Origin: Intestinicryptomonas porci
GTDB lineage: Bacteria; Verrucomicrobiota; Verrucomicrobiia; Opitutales; Intestinicryptomonadaceae
Direction: 5' to 3'
NCBI RefSeq assembly: GCF_033971905.1
Contig: NZ_JALBUT010000004.1
Coordinates: 136,942-200,941 of the forward strand
Length of the DNA stretch: 64,000 bases
Position numbers and translations under genes: made by a program. Positions 8,772 through 35,955 of this stretch are shown here, piece after piece. The notes beneath the pieces are model-generated. The model did not search any database. It was not told the DNA's origin and saw only the letters and a program-made list of their open reading frames with translations. Position 1 is the stretch's first letter, and each line of letters begins with the position of its first letter.

Positions 8772-9997
8772 ATAGAAGAGTTGTCGTGACGGGAATGGGC
8801 GCGATAAGCCCTCTCGGAAATTCGGTCAAGGAAAATTTCGACAGACTGCATGTCTATGAAAACAAAATCGAAGTTTTGGAAAGCCTCAAAGAATACAGCG
8901 GGCTGAATTCCAACCTCGCAAGCGTCATAAAGGATTTTAAAATACCCGAACGCTATTCGCGCAAAACTCTACGCACAATGGGCCCCGTGTCGGTAATGTC
9001 GCTTTTTGTGACAGAGCAGGCTCTCGAACAGGCGGGGATTGAGCAGGGCGGGGAGCTTATCCGCGGCGGAAGGCTCGGCGTTGCGTACGGTTCGTCGTCG
9101 GGTTCCGTTGAGCCTCTTTTGGATTTTTATTCGATGATAAATACGAAAGTCGTGCGCAACATCACATCTTCAACCTATATGAAGATGATGCCGCAGACTA
9201 CCGCCGTTAATATCTCGCTTTACCTGAAAACAACGGGCAGAATAATCCCGTCGGGAACCGCCTGCACTTCGGGCAGCCTTTCTATCGGATACGCCTACGA
9301 AGCCATAAAATACGGTCTTCAAGACGTGATGATTGCAGGGGGGGCGGAAGAATTCAGCCCGACGCAGGTTGCCATATTCGACACTTTGTACGCCACAAGC
9401 TCAAAGAACGAAACGCCCAAAAAAACGCCCTCTCCCTACGATGCCGAAAGGGACGGACTTGTTATAGGCGAGGGCGCGGCTACTCTCGTCTTGGAAGAGT
9501 ACGAACACGCGAAGGCAAGAGGCGCGAAGATAATTGCCGAAGTCGCGGGGTTTGCCTCAAACACCGACGGAACGCATATGACACAGCCAAACGCGCACAC
9601 AATCCAAGCCGCAATCGAAAAGTCGATGGAATGCGCGGGGGTGGATTCTTCCGAAATATGCTATGTAAACGGGCATGGAACAGCGACAACACAGGGGGAC
9701 ATTGCCGAAACAACCGCAACCGCCGCCGCTTTCAAACGCCCCATGCCAATTTCTTCGATGAAAAGCTACATAGGGCATTCTCTCGGCGCATGCGGCGCAA
9801 TCGAAGCGGCAATGACAATCGAAATGCTTAATTCCGACTGGTATATGCCCACTCTCAATTTGAAAAATGTCGATTCCGCATGTGGTGAGCTTGACTACAT
9901 AATAAACGAGGGCAGGGTTATTCGCGGAGAATATGCCATGAGCAACAATTTCGCCTTTGGCGGAGTCAACACTTCTCTTATATTCAAGCGGCTTTAA
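8768..9997 (+). CDS. beta-ketoacyl-ACP synthase II-like (FabF/FabB family)
   Basis: The N-terminus MNRRVVVTGMGAISPLGNS is classical for this family. The catalytic residues lie in GTACTSGS (Cys), VNGHGTAT (His) and GHSLGACG (His). Confidence 0.85.
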   Translation: MNRRVVVTGMGAISPLGNSVKENFDRLHVYENKIEVLESLKEYSGLNSNLASVIKDFKIPERYSRKTLRTMGPVSVMSLFVTEQALEQAGIEQGGELIRGGRLGVAYGSSSGSVEPLLDFYSMINTKVVRNITSSTYMKMMPQTTAVNISLYLKTTGRIIPSGTACTSGSLSIGYAYEAIKYGLQDVMIAGGAEEFSPTQVAIFDTLYATSSKNETPKKTPSPYDAERDGLVIGEGAATLVLEEYEHAKARGAKIIAEVAGFASNTDGTHMTQPNAHTIQAAIEKSMECAGVDSSEICYVNGHGTATTQGDIAETTATAAAFKRPMPISSMKSYIGHSLGACGAIEAAMTIEMLNSDWYMPTLNLKNVDSACGELDYIINEGRVIRGEYAMSNNFAFGGVNTSLIFKRL

Positions 9998-10911
9998 GAT
10001 TTAAAGAAGTCGAAAAAATTAAACCACTGCAAGGGGGTATCGAGAGCGGATTTTTCCAAAAACGCGGCGTATTCCCTTGCGAGGTTTTCTCCGCGCCTTT
10101 TTGACTTTGCAAACTCTGCCATTTTGATTGTCGCAAAATATTTTCCATTTTTTTCCGCGCAGTTTGCGAAAAACACGGGGCGTTTTAGCATTTCGGCAAG
10201 CTGGAAAACTCCGCTTGGCAGATTGCATTTTTTGCCCAAAACAATTTCTTCGAAAAACTTTTCGGGGGCGCGTTTTGAAAGCCTGTCGCCCGCTGCGATA
10301 ATCAAATTTCCCCGTTCAAGCTCGGCGTCAAGATGTCCGAAAGTCGCGATGTTTATGTTTGAGACGTCCAAGAAATGGAAAGAATTTTCTTTTGATTTTG
10401 AAAGAAATTCCGTTCTGAAAATAGATTCCGACCAATTTTCGACAAGGGCGAAGATTTCGGGTTTTCGCGTTCCGAAAGCCGCCGCTCCGTTTGTGCCGAG
10501 AACTTCAAAATTGCCAATGTGCGAAAAAATCAAAAATGCGCCTTTCCCCGAATTTACAAGCGTTTTAAATTCTTCCGCGTCGTGGGAATTTTCAAAAAAA
10601 ACGCAATTTTTCGGAATGCGCCCCGACAGCGAAAGCATTTTATCGAGCATCGAAAGCGCGTAGTTATAGATAAGCCTGAAAACTCTCGGCTTGGTCGGAC
10701 TTATTTCTCTTCTTTTTTCAAATTCGTTCAAAACGCCGAAAAATTTTTTTGCGGAAGTTCTCGCTTCCGCCAAAAACGGGTATGCGCAAACGACAATGAA
10801 AAATATCAGAAACCGCGCGGCTCTGCGCCCAAAAACAATGCAAAACCACCAGACGATTTTTATCCTTAAAACGCCCGCGCATTTCTCTTTCTGGTTGAAC
10901 CATTCGCTCAT
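9994..10911 (-). CDS. LpxL/HtrB-family (lipid-A-type lauroyl/myristoyl) acyltransferase, ApeD-like
   Basis: SHIGNFEV matches the HxGNxE/HX4D-type motif of the LpxL family, and the N-terminus is a membrane anchor. Its stop codon overlaps the convergent KAS stop. Confidence 0.65.
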   Translation of the reverse strand: MSEWFNQKEKCAGVLRIKIVWWFCIVFGRRAARFLIFFIVVCAYPFLAEARTSAKKFFGVLNEFEKRREISPTKPRVFRLIYNYALSMLDKMLSLSGRIPKNCVFFENSHDAEEFKTLVNSGKGAFLIFSHIGNFEVLGTNGAAAFGTRKPEIFALVENWSESIFRTEFLSKSKENSFHFLDVSNINIATFGHLDAELERGNLIIAAGDRLSKRAPEKFFEEIVLGKKCNLPSGVFQLAEMLKRPVFFANCAEKNGKYFATIKMAEFAKSKRRGENLAREYAAFLEKSALDTPLQWFNFFDFFKS

Positions 10912-13013
10912 TTTTCCTCCGCAAGAAAAAGCGATATGAAATATGCAAATCCAAGCCCGAGGGCGAGCATCTCTCCGATGGAGCTTATCGCCTTAAACGA
11001 CGTGAATGCAAGCGCGCCAAAGCCGATTATGCTTGTCGCAAAAGAAATAAACACGGCGTTTTTTGTAAGCGTGGAATTATTTGAATAATGGAAAATAGAA
11101 TAGTCTATGCCAAGCCCCATTAAAATAAATAGAGCCAAGATATGGAATAAATTTACGTTTGCGCCTAAAATCCAAAATATGAAAATCGGAAGCCCTGCCG
11201 ACAAGACCACGGGCAAAATCAGTTTGAAAAAACTCCTTCTGAAAACGAGCGCAAACATTGCGGCAAGCGCAAGAAAACTTGCCGCAATTAAAGCCGCCGA
11301 AGATTTCATGTATGAGTCAAAAATGCCGTTTAGAAATTCAGGGGGCGAAAACGTTTCAAGAGCGCAGTTTTCGTCTTTGCCCACGGGAATGATTGCAGTC
11401 CAACTGCCGTTTTCTCCGTGAAGCATGCTTGAAACGGCATCTTCAAAAAGCGTGCCTTTAAGATCTTCGATTTTAAGCGGCTTTTGCCCTTTGGGCATTT
11501 CAAATTTTTTGTTTGCGCCTATTGATTTTTGGAGCTTTTCGGCGTATTTTTCGTAAAGGTTTTCAATAAGCCTTTTGTTTTTTTCCTGGCGATTTAAAGA
11601 CGGGATAAATCTTGAAATTCCGCTTGCGCCGGCGTTTTCTTCGCATGTCAAAATACTGTCTATCGAAGAGCCTTTTATTATCGCAAGCTTCTTTTCTGTG
11701 TCCTTGAATATTTCAGAAAGCGACTTCTCCTGTAGGAGCAAGTCTTTATCCGGAACGTAAAGATCCGTTGCCTGAGTTTTGAATTTTGCAAAAATCAGCC
11801 CCGAAAGCGACGCCGACACAAGCGCAATTACGGCAATGTTTTTCAGCCTGCCCAGTTTCGGGATGGGAATTTTCAATACCGACTGATTGAAATCGGGCTT
11901 CAATTTTCTTACAATCAAAGGATAGAAAAACCTCACAAATAAATACGATGAAATCAACCCCGCAATGGAAAATACCGAGATTTCTTTAAGCAAGTCGAGG
12001 CTTGAAAAATACAAGACCGCAAAGCAGACAAGCGTTGTCGCGAGCGTTTTGTTCAAGGGCTTTTCGATGCTTTTAAAGGCGTCTTCGGGGGAGAATTTTT
12101 TGCATGCGGAAAAATAATGGTATGAATAGTCAACAGAAAGCCCAATCAAACTTGTCGCAAAAATCAGGACGCATACATGGGGTTTATCAAAGAAAAATAC
12201 GAGGGTAGCAAGCGCGAATACAAAGGAGGAACATAGAGATATTGCCATCGGCAAAAATATTTTGGCTGTTCCAAACGCCCAATAACCCAGCGCAAAAACC
12301 AAGGTCAAAGAAACTGCCGAAAGAAAATTTATTTCGCTTTTTGATTTTTTCGACACTTTTAAGCTGTGTATGCGTGCACCGCTTTTATAGACTTCCAAAT
12401 CTTTGTTTTTTAGATTTTCAAGATTTTCAATTTTGCTTTCGAGTTCGGCGTCGGTTAAATTCAGCGTATTTAAAATCGCCGCCGCGTAGAATTTTCCGCC
12501 TTCTTCCTTCTCCAAAAAACCGTCCGACATTTTCCAACCGCCGCCGTATTCGAGGAGGCTTTTAACGTATTCTTCCAATAGAAAGAAAGGGTCTTTTGAA
12601 ACCTTGAAAATCGAGGCGCGGTAGGGGGATAGAATTTTTCTTTTTGCTTCGCTTAAAATTTTTTCTCCTCCGCCGCTTTCGATTATTGCCGCGCTCTCGG
12701 GGGAAAGAATATAGCTTGAATGCTCTAAAAGAAGCGTTTTTGCCGCGTTTAATTTTTCAGAATTGTCCCTTTCAACCCCAAGGATTTTCGCGGCTTTTTC
12801 TTTTGCGGCTTCCAGCGTTTCGCGGTTTTCTGACGCAAGGACAATTCTTATTTTCGAGGAATTGTTTTTTATGAAATCAAGCTCCGCGCTCTTGTTTTTG
12901 CCGCTTGCAAGCTCAAAAATTCCATACTCGAAATCAATAGGCACGCATAGCAGAAAAAGCGCGGAAAGCGCAAAAACCGCGGCGTATATAAATCTGAAAA
13001 TGGTGTCTTTCAA
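10908..13013 (-). CDS. MMPL/RND-superfamily exporter
   Basis: The 701-aa product has two blocks of multiple TM helices separated by a large soluble domain. This is the usual position of an MMPL exporter in APE-type clusters. Confidence 0.6.
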   Translation of the reverse strand: MKDTIFRFIYAAVFALSALFLLCVPIDFEYGIFELASGKNKSAELDFIKNNSSKIRIVLASENRETLEAAKEKAAKILGVERDNSEKLNAAKTLLLEHSSYILSPESAAIIESGGGEKILSEAKRKILSPYRASIFKVSKDPFFLLEEYVKSLLEYGGGWKMSDGFLEKEEGGKFYAAAILNTLNLTDAELESKIENLENLKNKDLEVYKSGARIHSLKVSKKSKSEINFLSAVSLTLVFALGYWAFGTAKIFLPMAISLCSSFVFALATLVFFFDKPHVCVLIFATSLIGLSVDYSYHYFSACKKFSPEDAFKSIEKPLNKTLATTLVCFAVLYFSSLDLLKEISVFSIAGLISSYLFVRFFYPLIVRKLKPDFNQSVLKIPIPKLGRLKNIAVIALVSASLSGLIFAKFKTQATDLYVPDKDLLLQEKSLSEIFKDTEKKLAIIKGSSIDSILTCEENAGASGISRFIPSLNRQEKNKRLIENLYEKYAEKLQKSIGANKKFEMPKGQKPLKIEDLKGTLFEDAVSSMLHGENGSWTAIIPVGKDENCALETFSPPEFLNGIFDSYMKSSAALIAASFLALAAMFALVFRRSFFKLILPVVLSAGLPIFIFWILGANVNLFHILALFILMGLGIDYSIFHYSNNSTLTKNAVFISFATSIIGFGALAFTSFKAISSIGEMLALGLGFAYFISLFLAEEK

Positions 13014-28124: not shown

Positions 28125-28154
28125 GCCGTTCCTTGCAAAATAATTCCAAACAAA

Positions 28155-28186
28155 AAAGCGGAGCAAATGCCCCGCTTTTTTTTGCG
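28155..28186. terminator. probable bidirectional terminator
   Basis: An A-run, then stem aagcgg/ccgctt, then tttttttt; it lies between convergent frdB and the serpin gene. Confidence 0.45.
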
Positions 28187-28217
28187 TTATGTTTCAAGGA
28201 TTGGCTCAATTTGAAAT

Positions 28218-29384
28218 TTAATCATCATACTGTAAAAACTTTACATCTCCCTTTCCCGTAAAAACGCCTTCTAATATTATGTTTTTGCAAGAAAGCGATT
28301 TAATGTCAAATTTGCGATAATATTCATTAAAGCCAATTACAAAGAAGGCAAAAGGTTCGTTTAGAGAGAAAACATCAGGTTTTTTCCCTCCACCGAAAAT
28401 GCTTGTATATAAATTTGTTGCACTTGCAACTACACCATTTCTATCAAAACGTATCTTATTTTGTGAATTTGTTTGCACAAAGTTTTTTAGCCCCAAAACG
28501 AGTTCCGCATTGAGAGAAAATATATCCTTTACCCCTAACTTTGAGATGGCCTCTATACTGTCTTTTTCTTTTGTGAAAATTTCAAAAGCAGGCATTTTAA
28601 TACGCAACTTTTTTCTTGTTGCCTTGTGGAAGAATTCGTCAAATTCTCCTTCGGTTAAGTCTCTGAAAGAATAACCGTTTTTTGGCTTTGCAAAAAGCAC
28701 ACCGCCTGAATCAAAAAAATTGTCGAATACAAATATAAACTTTTCGTTTTCGAAGTAAAAAGAATGAATATCTTTATACAAAAATTCCACATTCAATGCA
28801 TCGCTTACCGAACGATAAAACATCATTTTTTTGCTTCTATCATAAACTCTCTCCCAAAAACATTTTAAATATAAATTGCTAAACAGGAGCAAATCGAGTT
28901 TTTCAGTAGGAAGATTTATGTCGATTTTCTCGCCCATGCCAAGCGTATGTTTTTCAATGAGATTATTTATTTGTTCTGTTTGGTTTTCAGACAAATTTTC
29001 TACATGATTGATTTTACTAAAAACCGAATCAATAATATCGAGGTCTTTTATCTTTTTAAAAAAGTCTTCAGAGGCAAAAATCGCAACTCTCTTATCTATG
29101 AAATTTATTCTACTACCATGATCTTTTATGATAATTTGAGAGGGATTGTATTCGAAAAACTCATAGGAATTAAAAAGGGCTTCCAATTCTTTCAGAGCTT
29201 TGCCACTTGCAAATTTGGAAAGAATTTCAAGATGGTCGGAAAATAAAAGCGGTGAAACTAAAAAACTATCACCGTTTGAAACTTCGAGCATTTTGTCAAA
29301 ATACGCAAAATTAAACGACTTTTTCCCTGATGCAAATGCGGTAAATATATAAATAAATATCCAAAATATCAAAAACTTTTTCAT
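28218..29384 (-). CDS. serpin-like serine protease inhibitor (secreted)
   Basis: A signal peptide is followed by an N-terminal FLVSPLLFSDHLEIL block, a hinge-like NGVVASATN, and then FSLNEPFAFFVI (compare serpin F-x-x-D/N-R-P-F-L-F-x-I) and a C-terminal IILEGVFTG. Confidence 0.6.
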   Translation of the reverse strand: MKKFLIFWIFIYIFTAFASGKKSFNFAYFDKMLEVSNGDSFLVSPLLFSDHLEILSKFASGKALKELEALFNSYEFFEYNPSQIIIKDHGSRINFIDKRVAIFASEDFFKKIKDLDIIDSVFSKINHVENLSENQTEQINNLIEKHTLGMGEKIDINLPTEKLDLLLFSNLYLKCFWERVYDRSKKMMFYRSVSDALNVEFLYKDIHSFYFENEKFIFVFDNFFDSGGVLFAKPKNGYSFRDLTEGEFDEFFHKATRKKLRIKMPAFEIFTKEKDSIEAISKLGVKDIFSLNAELVLGLKNFVQTNSQNKIRFDRNGVVASATNLYTSIFGGGKKPDVFSLNEPFAFFVIGFNEYYRKFDIKSLSCKNIILEGVFTGKGDVKFLQYDD

Positions 29385-29443
29385 TTCTTCTAAATTTTAT
29401 ATTTAGATAAATGAATAACAAGATTAAAAATGGCAGAATGCAT

Positions 29444-30874
29444 TTATAAATTTCTGTCGGAAGAAATTTTGTAGTTTTTCATTATTCGCGGCAGGGAGTC
29501 TTTCAGATTTTTTATGTCAACGATTATTTTTATTCCGTTATTGCTTTCCATGATGAAAAAGCCTTCGTTTTGCAAATCGTACATTTTAGCAAGCTCTTTC
29601 AGGTTTTTCACTTTTTTGCCGTTTACGGATTTTAAAATCAAGTTTCCGACTCCCTTGTAGCCTTCGGTTGACACGTCGCCCAAAGTTTGCGCAAGAATTA
29701 TCGTTTCTTCGTCGGCGTCGGAGTTTGTCTTTGAGAAAAGAACCGACATTTCATCGGGCACTCTCCGATATTCGTCGAGAAGGCTTAGCGAAAGTTTCGT
29801 AAACACAAAACCGCCGACAAGCAGGTATTCGGGCGATTTGTTGTAGTAGTGCGGCGCAATTTTATGCATTGCGGCTTTAAGTTCCACATCGGCTTCAAGC
29901 TCTTTGCCGTCTCTTAGCAGGCGCAATTTCACGGTGTCGCCAAGGCGCTTGCGGTCGGTTATGACGCCGAATGAAACATTTTCTCCGCTTTCGGCAACTA
30001 CATTTCCGTTGTTTAAAATTTTAAATCCGTCAATCGATAAAATCACATCTCCCTCTTTCAAATTTAAATCGGCATTCGCGAAAGTTTCCACAATCATAAC
30101 CCCGCTATGATGTTTTTTCATCTTCAAAAATCTTCTGGTATCCGCCGACTGCAATGTTTGGTATGTTATGCACAAACTGCCAAACCCTTTTATTTCTCCG
30201 GATTTTACTTCGCTTAAAAAGTGTTTTATGATGTCGGTATGAATCATGTATCCCAGCCCCTCCCCCTCTTTGAAGCCCTGGAATGCAATGCCTACTATTT
30301 TGTTTTTAAAGAGAATGGGGCCTCCGCTGTTCCCCGGATTTATAGCGGCGTCAAGTTGGGCTGCGATATGATTCATGTACGGATATTGGGCGTATTGCAT
30401 TGACTCGATTCTTGAAATAATCCCCTGCGTCACCGAAATGCCGTCTCCGCCCATCGGATAGCCCACAACAAAGACAGGAGTTTGTGCGGGAGGCGTATTG
30501 CCGATTTCAAAAGGTTTAATTCCGTCAAAAAAAGACTTGTCTTCGACTTCGAGCAAGGCGAGGTCGCACTGGTGGTTGACTGCTTTTACTTTTGCAGGCA
30601 CGGGAATTCCGTTTTGCTCGCGTTCAACTGCGATGTAAGTCGCGTCGGCAATATTGTGCGAGTTTGTCAAAATATAGTTGCCTTCTATCACGACGCCGCT
30701 TCCGCTTGCGGCACTCTGTTCACCCGTGCGCCATGGAGAAAAGAAGTCGGGCGAACAGGAAACGGCTTCGATTTTCACAACGCCGCTTAATTGGTTTGAA
30801 TTTTGCGCGGCAGCCTGCAAGGAAAAAACAGCTGATGATAAGATGAGAAACAATCGTTTAAAAAAAATTGTCAT
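29444..30874 (-). CDS. exported trypsin-like serine protease with C-terminal PDZ-like region (HtrA/DegP-like)
   Basis: A signal peptide is followed by catalytic His in LTNSHNI and the Ser motif GNSGGPI. Confidence 0.75.
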   Translation of the reverse strand: MTIFFKRLFLILSSAVFSLQAAAQNSNQLSGVVKIEAVSCSPDFFSPWRTGEQSAASGSGVVIEGNYILTNSHNIADATYIAVEREQNGIPVPAKVKAVNHQCDLALLEVEDKSFFDGIKPFEIGNTPPAQTPVFVVGYPMGGDGISVTQGIISRIESMQYAQYPYMNHIAAQLDAAINPGNSGGPILFKNKIVGIAFQGFKEGEGLGYMIHTDIIKHFLSEVKSGEIKGFGSLCITYQTLQSADTRRFLKMKKHHSGVMIVETFANADLNLKEGDVILSIDGFKILNNGNVVAESGENVSFGVITDRKRLGDTVKLRLLRDGKELEADVELKAAMHKIAPHYYNKSPEYLLVGGFVFTKLSLSLLDEYRRVPDEMSVLFSKTNSDADEETIILAQTLGDVSTEGYKGVGNLILKSVNGKKVKNLKELAKMYDLQNEGFFIMESNNGIKIIVDIKNLKDSLPRIMKNYKISSDRNL

Positions 30875-30990: not shown

Positions 30991-31041
30991 AAAAAAACGG
31001 AGGCGATTAAAGCCTCCGCCTCTGTTCGGTTTTATTTTTTT
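30991..31041. terminator. bidirectional rho-independent terminator
   Basis: An A7 run, then the 7-bp stem cggaggc/gcctccg, then ttttattttttt. Confidence 0.65.
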
Positions 31042-31306
31042 GATATATAAAATCCGCAACATTTTGGAGAAAGAGAGTTTGTCGATTGCAATATCTTGCC
31101 GCACCGAATGCAATGGTATGTATAAACCTGCTGGGCGAAAGAATATATTCCCGCCAAAAACAATGCCGATATTATTGCGATTTTTATTTTTTTTGTCATA
31201 ATTGCCTTCCTGTTTTTAGAGTGTTATACAAGTAATTCGCAAAAACAAAAAAAATCTCACGCATTAAAAAAAATTTTTTTTAAGAAGGAGATAAAAAAAT
31301 GCGCTT

Positions 31307-34647: not shown

Positions 34648-35955
34648 ATGAGTAATTTTGAAAAACGCCTGCTTGACAAATTGCCCGAATATTACGATGC
34701 AGGGCTCATTGACACATTCTCGGAACAGCGTTTGAGGAGCTATTTGAGCGAAAAATCAGCAGCTTCGGGGAAATTTTTTACCACTCTTTCAATTTACATT
34801 CTTGCGGCCGCGGTCGCGATTTTGGGGGTATTTTTGCTTTTGCAATATAACTGGGAAAATTTCCAAGACGTTACAAAACTTGTTATCGGCTTTATCCCTC
34901 TTCTTTTTTCTGCGGTTTTCGGAATTTTGTATTTTGCAAAATTTTTTAAGAATGCGCTATTTGCCGACATTGCCGCGATTTTAAACCTCCTCGGGGTAAT
35001 AGCGGCAGTTCTTATAACAAACGACGTGTTTTATCTTTACGGAAGCGAATATCATGCGTGGGCGACCATAATTTTAACAGCCTTGCCGATTCCCTTTATT
35101 TTCAGGTCTTCGCTTTCCGCGCTGTTTTTAATTATTTTGACGCTTTCTAATTCCCATTTTGAAACTGCTGAAATTCAAAATCTCTTTTGTTTTACAAACG
35201 TAATATTGGCGTTTTTTATTTATAAAAAATCATATGACGACACGAGGGCTGTAAATTTTGTTTCGTACATTTTATTGTGCCTAATTTTGCCATTCATATT
35301 TTTTGTTTCCGACATTTTTTCAGCGTTTGTAAATGACGCAACATTTTTTGCGTTGGGAGCCGCAATTCCGCTTTTAAAATTTGCAAAGCAAAAAGAGATT
35401 AAAGATGTTTTCCCGATATGTTTTTCGTGGATTTGGATTATAGCGTTTGTATATATATTTTATTGCGGAAGCGTATATTTTAACACAACGCTTTCCATAC
35501 GCGCTTTTTTTGAAAGCTTAAAAGAAATGCATAATTTGAACTTTCTGGCAATAGGAAGTTTTTATGCGGCAAATTTCTATTTCGTTTGCAAATTTTTCAA
35601 GTCGCTTTTCGACAAGGAAACAAACAAAGCTTATGTAGTACTCTCCGCCGTTGGCTTTTTCCCGATATTTCTTCTTAGCACAATGGAAGAAAAAGTTGAC
35701 ATAAATACGGTACAAAATTTTATTTGCGCCTATGTGTTTTTAAGCGCGTTTGCATTCGTCCTTTCTGCAATAAGGCGCAAGAGTTTCGTACTTTTAAACT
35801 GCGGGTCTTTGCTTGTTGTGGTTTGGGCAGTTTCAAAGTTTTTTAGCGATAATTTGGATTCTCTTTCTGTGTCAAAGTCGCTGCTTATTGCAGGACTAAT
35901 CATTGCCGCTTTAAATTTTAGTTTAAGCAAGCTCTTAAAAAACATCGGGGAATAA
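34648..35955 (+). CDS. polytopic membrane protein, DUF2157-like
   Basis: A short cytoplasmic N-terminal helix-rich segment precedes 10 or more predicted TM helices. No catalytic motif was recognised. Confidence 0.4.
   Translation: MSNFEKRLLDKLPEYYDAGLIDTFSEQRLRSYLSEKSAASGKFFTTLSIYILAAAVAILGVFLLLQYNWENFQDVTKLVIGFIPLLFSAVFGILYFAKFFKNALFADIAAILNLLGVIAAVLITNDVFYLYGSEYHAWATIILTALPIPFIFRSSLSALFLIILTLSNSHFETAEIQNLFCFTNVILAFFIYKKSYDDTRAVNFVSYILLCLILPFIFFVSDIFSAFVNDATFFALGAAIPLLKFAKQKEIKDVFPICFSWIWIIAFVYIFYCGSVYFNTTLSIRAFFESLKEMHNLNFLAIGSFYAANFYFVCKFFKSLFDKETNKAYVVLSAVGFFPIFLLSTMEEKVDINTVQNFICAYVFLSAFAFVLSAIRRKSFVLLNCGSLLVVVWAVSKFFSDNLDSLSVSKSLLIAGLIIAALNFSLSKLLKNIGE

Follow-up and report, generated by a model that had tools for sequence, protein, structure and literature searches.

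Does a serpin encoded directly behind a protease gene serve to control that protease? The question arises in Intestinicryptomonas porci (Verrucomicrobiota; Opitutales), where a 64,000-nucleotide stretch of contig NZ_JALBUT010000004.1 (hereafter the window) carries on its minus strand an open reading frame (ORF) of 476 amino acids (aa) followed, after a 59-bp gap, by one of 388 aa (Table 1). A first-pass annotation, made from the letters alone, took the two for a signal-peptide-bearing, HtrA-like protease and an exported serpin, and proposed that they form a cognate, self-contained module of proteolysis control. The peptide strings that it quoted (NGVVASATN, FSLNEPFAFFVI, IILEGVFTG, and GNSGGPI) are all present in ORFs of the window. 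Both gene identities were upheld by our analysis. The module was not, as comparative genomics pointed to an adjacency made by a deletion, to separate partners of the two genes, and to the occurrence of each gene without the other. No bacterial serpin–HtrA gene pair came to light in our literature searches.

By profile and fold alike, the 388-aa protein is a member of the serpin superfamily. It matched the Pfam family PF00079 with 57.4 bits (E 1.9e-15; gathering cut-off, 27 bits), covering profile positions 3–353 of 370, and its sequence matched serpins in the PDB at E values of about 5e-8. AlphaFold2 modelling on the four-sequence family alignment gave a predicted local distance difference test score (pLDDT) of 39.8 and was unusable. 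It was replaced by modelling on a 77-sequence alignment that included distant serpins from a full hidden Markov model (HMM) scan, and the resulting model had a pLDDT of 83.8 and a predicted template-modelling score (pTM) of 0.84, with pLDDT values below 50 solely at residues 322–333. A Foldseek search of the PDB with this model gave 415 matches at E ≤0.001, and all 50 of the 50 listed were serpins. The leading match was native alpha1-antitrypsin (8pi2; E 1e-19, probability 1.00, template-modelling (TM) score 0.65–0.68), and tengpin and miropin (5ncs) were also among the matches. The fold of the model is that of a serpin, in which the reactive-centre loop is exposed between strands s5A and s1C, at a TM score of only about 0.65. 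The annotation had named the lack of a serpin score and of a serpin fold as what would speak against its assignment; profile and predicted structure are both those of a serpin.

The N-termini of both proteins contain one or two basic residues, a hydrophobic stretch, and an A-x-A-type site, and were read as predicted Sec signal peptides, in agreement with the proposed export; cleavage of the protease is predicted at MTIFFKRLFLILSSAVFSLQA/AAQ. No lipobox cysteine was seen in the signal peptide of the serpin. The N-terminus of the mature serpin, GKK(E)SFNFAYFDKMLE, is invariant in four of four family members, and the leader is variable.

The upstream protein, judged from its sequence, is an ordinary Deg2/Deg9-type HtrA. 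Its catalytic domain matched Pfam Trypsin_2 (E 1.6e-25), and the triad residues His73, Asp104, and Ser183 lie within the motifs TNSH, QCD, and GNSGGP (at 70, 102, and 181). With matches to PDZ_2 and PDZ_3 in addition, the protein has the make-up of the HtrA/DegP family (MEROPS S1C), namely a chymotrypsin-fold triad domain followed by C-terminal PDZ domains. It aligned over its full length with Arabidopsis Deg9 (5il9, E 5e-80) and Deg2 (4fln, E 9e-75), the alignments reaching residues 469–475. The catalytic domain with its triad, the PDZ domain, and the PDZ_3-type second PDZ domain are common to the window protease and these two enzymes; the window protease differs in being bacterial, in having a signal peptide, and in its recurrent genomic partners, an extracytoplasmic function (ECF) sigma factor and a kinase. 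It falls under the curated cut-offs of the models for bacterial DegP, DegQ, and DegS, and the NCBIfam Do-family model matched it at E 3e-39, which is also under the cut-off. For serpin and protease alike, the matches to their families go far past what chance would give. Protease homologues numbered 1948 below an E value of 1e-30, forming a smooth gradient of identity through metagenome-assembled genomes (MAGs) labelled Opitutales or Victivallales.

The origin of the adjacency was traced by comparison with related loci. In one relative, L002, the protease and the serpin are about 95% and 79% identical to those of the window and are separated by 7.2 kb, an interval that holds a 47-aa ORF, an ECF-type sigma factor, a 44-aa ORF, a Ser/Thr kinase, a NERD/UvrD helicase, a tyrosine integrase, a 501-aa protein, and a 118-aa membrane protein. 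None of the genes of this block was found anywhere in the 64-kb window. By blastn, window positions 30787–29443 correspond to L002 positions 1389–2733, in a block that ends at the protease stop codon, and window positions 29438–27528 correspond to L002 positions 9947–11856, in a block that begins 54 bp before the ATG of the serpin; between the two, only 4 bp of the window (29439–29442) remained unaligned. The identical junction recurs in L011 and in L004, a MAG from yak caecum with the label Opitutales; as these assemblies are independent, it is not an assembly artefact. These alignments indicate that a single deletion of roughly 7.2 kb occurred in the lineage of the window and left only the serpin and 54 bp upstream of it from the block. 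The protease–serpin adjacency, created in this way, is an accident of genome history. The retained 54-bp segment is 92–94% identical to that of the relatives, as compared with 84% for the serpin coding region; this better conservation and the promoter-like site in the spacer suggest that the serpin probably keeps its own promoter.

The reverse history, in which an integrase-borne element was inserted into an ancestral protease–serpin pair, was considered and rejected. Relatives with as little as 71% protease identity have a sigma factor and a small ORF behind the protease, a gene of the 118-aa type is found ahead of the serpin even where the serpin is 59% identical, and the serpin has the low guanine-plus-cytosine (GC) content of the block, all of which argue for deletion rather than insertion. 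When the surroundings of the 7.2-kb block were searched for direct repeats of the att type, only AT-rich chance matches came up; for this reason, the similarity of the breakpoints at 11 of 15 positions (CAGAAATTTGTAAAA vs CAGAAAGTTGCAAGA) is not claimed to be significant. No tRNA genes were found at the locus.

The genes that accompany the protease in relatives are others than the serpin. An ECF sigma factor and a small ORF lie directly 3' of it in L005 (95% protease identity), L007 (85%), and L008 and L009 (71%), the last two having a different context upstream of the protease; in L014 (52%), a sigma factor with kinases adjoins the orthologue. The serpin, for its part, is directly preceded by the gene of a 118–125-aa membrane protein in L001, L002, L003, and L010. 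The 118-aa protein is 37% identical to the 125-aa protein of L001 (E 1e-24), where the serpin is 59% identical to that of the window.

Each gene was also found alone. In L007, the interval from the protease to sdhB is fully spanned and contains no serpin, and none was present in the flanks fetched (1–6 kb downstream) of the orthologues in L012, L014, and L016 (58, 52, and 45% identity). The L005 contig ends too early for the presence of a serpin to be judged. In L001 and L010, the serpin cassette has no protease in the 1.2–1.9 kb upstream, and in L011 an intact, 98% identical serpin adjoins a protease gene that is interrupted by a premature stop. As L001, L002, L005, and L007–L010 show, the adjacency is not conserved beyond the immediate lineage, nor do the two genes co-occur, 1948 protease homologues standing against three relatives of the serpin. 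The stop in L011 is an in-frame TAA at the position of the Glu263 codon of the window (L011:785–790, GTGGAA to GCCTAA). It was read from a single Logan contig and could be either a real pseudogene mutation or an assembly error.

The composition of the serpin gene differs from that of its surroundings. Its GC content is 31.6% (30% at third codon positions), as compared with 44% for the protease and 51–54% for sdhA and sdhB, and the L002 block from the sigma factor to the serpin has 32–39% GC throughout. The ratio of the GC content of the serpin gene to that of the window is 0.70, at 31.6% against about 45%; according to a survey, a ratio as low as this is in a range rare among bacterial serpins (PMC8233489). 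The allele has evidently also moved. The serpin and its downstream spacer (window 28125–29384) are 99% identical to L004:1423–2681 and L011:1490–2748, whereas the flanking sdh and protease genes of L004 and L011 are just 84–92% identical to those of the window, implying a recent recombinational spread of the serpin allele across diverged backgrounds. L002 shows the opposite pattern, its flanks being 95–98% identical to the window and its serpin only 84%.

The hinge and the loop were compared with those of 73 distant serpins. The canonical inhibitory hinge, P17–P9, is ExGTEAAAA, in which P15 is Gly and P12–P9 are small and uncharged (PMC8233489). In the alignment, the window serpin retains the P15 Gly and the small P12–P9 residues. 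Its P17 Arg is found in 4 of the 73 distant serpins (Glu in 65) and its P14 Val in 6 (Thr in 50). The hinge is identical at 13 of 13 positions in the 79%-identical relative and at 11 of 13 in the 59%-identical one. In the loop, Phe330–Gly331 is invariant within the family; counting from the hinge places P1 at Gly331, which is aligned with Met358 of alpha1-antitrypsin, and the Phe-Gly pair is likely to provide the P1 or P2–P1 position. The ratio of non-synonymous to synonymous substitution rates (dN/dS) is 0.12–0.20 against the relatives, and the gene is under purifying selection. Between the window and L001, the dN of the loop is 0.70 and that of the whole protein is 0.285, a 2.4-fold difference. 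The combination of a kept hinge and a fast-diverging loop is the usual pattern of inhibitory serpins, and the hinge appears compatible with loop insertion; the inhibitory competence that they predict is plausible but uncertain.

Bacterial serpins themselves are already known; as judged by sequence searches, the one described here is a member of a tiny, isolated, and very divergent lineage. Among 5.8 billion protein clusters, three relatives only (98, 79, and 59% identity) were found, and searching by word index with the profile of the family gave no serpin relative beyond these. The full HMM scan of 1.84 billion representatives yielded 1399 hits, in which only its own cluster and one fragment exceeded 200 bits, and the next-best hit scored 78 bits. 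A scan of genome collections for the family found one MAG contig only, a metagenome scan found one further locus, and a scan of 2.9 million viral contigs found no relative. Nothing could be learnt from the names of the clusters that hold the nearest distant serpins. Identity to any serpin outside the family is about 14–22%, and that to alpha1-antitrypsin is 17.7%. When the protein was projected onto alpha1-antitrypsin and the 73 distant serpins, an acidic, seven-residue C-terminal tail (residues 382–388) was seen in addition to the insertion listed in Table 1, the end of helix D (alpha1-antitrypsin residues 99–106) was deleted, and the P' side of the loop was about three residues longer.

With some reserve, we favour the reading that the protein is a stand-alone exported serpin from accessory DNA, made a neighbour of the HtrA gene by a deletion, and that it probably inhibits exogenous gut proteases. 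The gene belongs to an accessory block of low GC content that Opitutales-like (Verrucomicrobiota) gut bacteria carry and that in relatives is sited between the core HtrA gene and sdhB, holding an ECF sigma factor, small ORF, Ser/Thr kinase, NERD/UvrD helicase, integrase, variable cargo, 118-aa membrane protein, and, last, the serpin. The deletion of about 7.2 kb then brought it to within 59 bp of the protease stop codon. The exported protein would act as a suicide-substrate inhibitor: a target protease would attack the exposed loop near Phe330–Gly331, the small-residue hinge (G-V-V-A-S-A-T) would insert into sheet A, and the protease would be trapped. Gut and oral bacterial serpins have a reported role against exogenous proteases (PMC8233489), and by analogy the likeliest targets may be exogenous chymotrypsin-fold proteases in the gut lumen, of the host or of other microbes. 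Our data show the family and the fold, how the locus arose, the purifying selection, and a hinge that is kept beside a quickly changing loop; activity as an inhibitor, the identity of P1, the targets, and the place where the protein ends up in or on the cell are inferred.

Several of our observations weigh against this reading. The serpin keeps only 22 of 53 canonical conserved positions, as compared with 28–49 (mean, 40.7) in the 73 distant serpins. Changes in the shutter (N49S, S56L, N186S, and H334S) and in the breach (E342R, K290A, and G192C) are fixed within the family; the shutter and breach thus depart from those of inhibitory serpins, with S53 and W194 retained. Similar deviations in a Streptomyces serpin clade have been interpreted as possibly non-inhibitory (PMC8233489). 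Gly331 would be an unusual P1 residue, and Phe330 as P1 would require a loop shorter by one residue. Neither a signal for outer-membrane export nor one for anchoring could be recognised in the serpin, and the organism is presumably diderm, so that access to lumenal proteases is only presumed. Three backgrounds, with flanking genes that differ by 8–16%, carry the deletion form, which is thus not a transient accident. Finally, the promoter and terminator scan found no terminator-like site between the protease and the serpin, and the two genes may therefore now be co-transcribed.

The low count of canonical positions and the family-invariant changes in the shutter and breach would be expected if the fold were kept and the stressed-to-relaxed transition lost, leaving a binding, carrier, or chaperone-like role, possibly together with the 118-aa membrane protein. 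The divergent Streptomyces serpins offer a precedent (PMC8233489), and the family-specific insertion, the acidic tail, and the conservation of the membrane-protein neighbour in four relatives are consistent with such a role. We nevertheless regard it as an appreciable but minor possibility, since the invariant hinge, with its P15 Gly and small P12–P9 residues, and the fast-evolving loop are the signature of inhibitory serpins, P14 and P12–P10 are free of bulky or charged residues, and the membrane-protein gene has been deleted in the lineage of the window, where the serpin is still intact and nearly identical across strains. It is improbable, on the other hand, that the serpin is there for its island, that is, as mobile or defence-island cargo acting against phages or competitors, for example by neutralising an attack-linked serine protease, and not against host enzymes. 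Its place at the edge of a low-GC block with an integrase, and with a pair of kinase and NERD/UvrD helicase that match candidate defence models (PD-T4-6/C3a189 and RTasNERD-Hel/C3a187), the variation among strains of the cargo adjoining it, and the 99%-identical allele across 84–92%-identical backgrounds, which implies recent exchange, would all fit this idea. PADLOC, however, gave the serpin no defence-system match, the 2.9 million viral contigs contain no relative, the Sec signal would place its action outside the cytoplasm, unlike that of most known defence effectors, and the lineage of the window retains the serpin without the rest of the block.

The cognate pair that the annotation had proposed, in which the serpin would regulate the adjoining HtrA in the same compartment, draws on the close same-strand arrangement with no terminator-like site between the genes, the signal peptides on both proteins, and the chymotrypsin fold of HtrA, which is the fold that serpins trap. 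The junction also persists in three diverged backgrounds with a 99%-identical serpin allele, and the L002 serpin still occupies the same interval, at a distance of 7 kb from the protease. We give this arrangement little credence as a functional pair, since the adjacency is evidently deletion-derived and the conserved partners of the protease are the ECF sigma factor and kinases; each gene, moreover, does without the other in the relatives described above (the protease in L007 and, within the flanks fetched, in distant orthologues; the serpin in L001 and L010, and in L011 beside a protease with the early stop), and the GC contents of the two genes differ by about 13 points. HtrA proteases prefer aliphatic P1 residues (Val, Ile, Leu, and Ala), unlike the conserved Phe-Gly of the loop. 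Deg2/Deg9-type enzymes form cages with the active sites facing inward, which a 42-kDa serpin could hardly reach. The deletion may instead have made a new operon, in which the co-expressed, acquired serpin tempers or redirects HtrA and the arrangement spread for that reason, a module caught at its origin. This seems very improbable to us. If true, this would to our knowledge be the first time that an endogenous target was identified for a bacterial serpin.

The closest known systems to the stand-alone exported serpin that we favour are miropin of Tannerella forsythia, the siropins of Eubacterium siraeum, and the serpin of Bifidobacterium longum (Group T of Spence et al. 2021; PMC8233489). The window serpin resembles these host-associated proteins in its predicted export, exposed loop, small-residue hinge, and presumed defence against exogenous serine proteases. 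It differs from them in the P17 Arg and P14 Val, the changed shutter and breach with 22 of 53 positions kept, the s4B/s5B insertion, the acidic tail, the anomalously low GC content, and the lack of a lipobox. With alpha1-antitrypsin (SERPINA1) it shares S53, P54, W194, F208, P255, P289, G344, P369, and F370, as well as a disordered loop in a native-like model; the Glu342–Lys290 pair is replaced by Arg and Ala. Ecotin, a Sec-exported periplasmic inhibitor of E. coli, is thought to guard the envelope against exogenous chymotrypsin-fold proteases and not the cell's own ones. Its fold is unrelated and it is a reversible, tight-binding dimer, whereas serpins are suicide substrates, so that it would be a functional analogue only.

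The in vivo targets of prokaryotic serpins are largely uncharacterised (PMC8201313), and a conserved serpin/protease pair would have given a direct handle on them. The present locus gives no such handle, as the pairing is a by-product of deletion, and it stands as a warning that two genes lying side by side in one genome are weak grounds for assuming a functional pair. The value of the serpin lies elsewhere. It is among the most divergent lineages in very large databases and allows the question of how much change in the shutter and breach is tolerable with an insertion-compatible hinge, and its composition and phylogeny both point clearly to recent horizontal exchange, a signal that is rare among bacterial serpins according to the survey (PMC8233489).

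Table 1. Features of the protease–serpin locus and their positions in the window
Feature	Position	Strand	Evidence
Deg2/Deg9-type HtrA serine protease, 476 aa, with signal peptide	29444..30874	-	Pfam, NCBIfam, PDB
Chymotrypsin-fold catalytic domain, residues 53–214	30233..30718	-	Pfam Trypsin match; His73, Asp104, Ser183
First PDZ domain, residues 252–332	29879..30121	-	Pfam PDZ_2, E 1.2e-7, 32.4 bits (cut-off 27)
Second PDZ domain, PDZ_3 type, residues 341–474	29453..29854	-	Pfam PF17815, E 1.9e-29
59-bp spacer with deletion junction (29439–29442) and promoter-like TTGTTA-16-TAAAAT (29421–29394)	29385..29443	-	blastn; promoter/terminator scan
Serpin gene, 388 aa, highly divergent superfamily member	28218..29384	-	Pfam, AlphaFold2, Foldseek, GC, dN/dS
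Predicted Sec signal peptide of serpin, residues 1–19, cut MKKFLIFWIFIYIFTAFA/SG	29328..29384	-	Read from sequence
Hinge P17–P9, R315-N-G-V-V-A-S-A-T323	28416..28442	-	Alignment with 73 distant serpins
Reactive-centre loop, residues 324–336, NLYTSIFGGGKKP	28377..28415	-	Model pLDDT <50 at 322–333; alignment
Family-specific 12-residue insertion s4B/s5B, residues 354–365	28290..28325	-	Projection onto alpha1-antitrypsin and 73 distant serpins
Hairpin and T-run, AGCGGGGC-ATTT-GCTCCGCT-TTTTT, with flanking A-run, 3' of serpin	28152..28176	-	Read from sequence

The hairpin downstream of the serpin (Table 1) is probably a bidirectional terminator common to the serpin and the convergent sdhB. It is missing from the sites given by the consensus terminator scan, for which one G-T pair is probably responsible.

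The loci of the relatives provided some further observations. The ECF-type sigma factor (218–229 aa) and its companion ORF of 44–65 aa are located at L002:2796–3770, L005:9499–10509, L007:8191–9025, L008:9532–10372, and L014:7626–8482; this pair lies by the HtrA gene with Ser/Thr kinases alongside, from 95% down to 52% protease identity. The combination of HtrA, sigma factor, and small ORF is reminiscent of sigma/anti-sigma signalling under the control of a protease, as in DegS/RseA/sigma-E, and the lineage of the window has lost this sigma-factor partner of HtrA. On the side of the serpin, a secreted protein of 233–241 aa, the multi-pass membrane protein of 118–125 aa, and the serpin form a conserved three-gene cassette (L001:485–1846, L010:8–1072, and L005:15698–16933). 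L005 encodes a 411-aa protein that ends in a glycine-rich, hydrophobic stretch and whose N-terminal part shares about 60% identity with the 233–241-aa protein. The cassette proteins (233–241, 118, 501, and 411 aa) gave nothing above threshold in Pfam, NCBIfam, or the PDB, except for a weak CsgG-like match of the 501-aa protein.

In the low-GC block that is absent from the window, a convergent Ser/Thr kinase, the NERD/UvrD helicase, and the tyrosine integrase were located at L002:3912–7507, L005:10604–14201, and L008:10378–15230. In PADLOC, the kinase matched PD-T4-6, mad6, and C3a189, and the helicase matched RTasNERD-Hel and C3a187, which suggests that the kinase and the NERD helicase are a candidate anti-phage defence pair.

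Upstream of the protease, the window contains an ORF of about 54 aa (31034–31198, minus strand) with a signal-peptide-like start and four cysteines (YHCIRCGK and SPKCCGF), followed by a strong terminator-like hairpin at 31023–30993; in L002 and L005, a 116-aa coiled-coil, lipoprotein-like ORF occupies its position. A DUF2157-type membrane-protein gene at 34648–35955 on the plus strand has a GC content of 36.7%, as compared with 41–48% for its neighbours, and its position is kept in L005 and L007.

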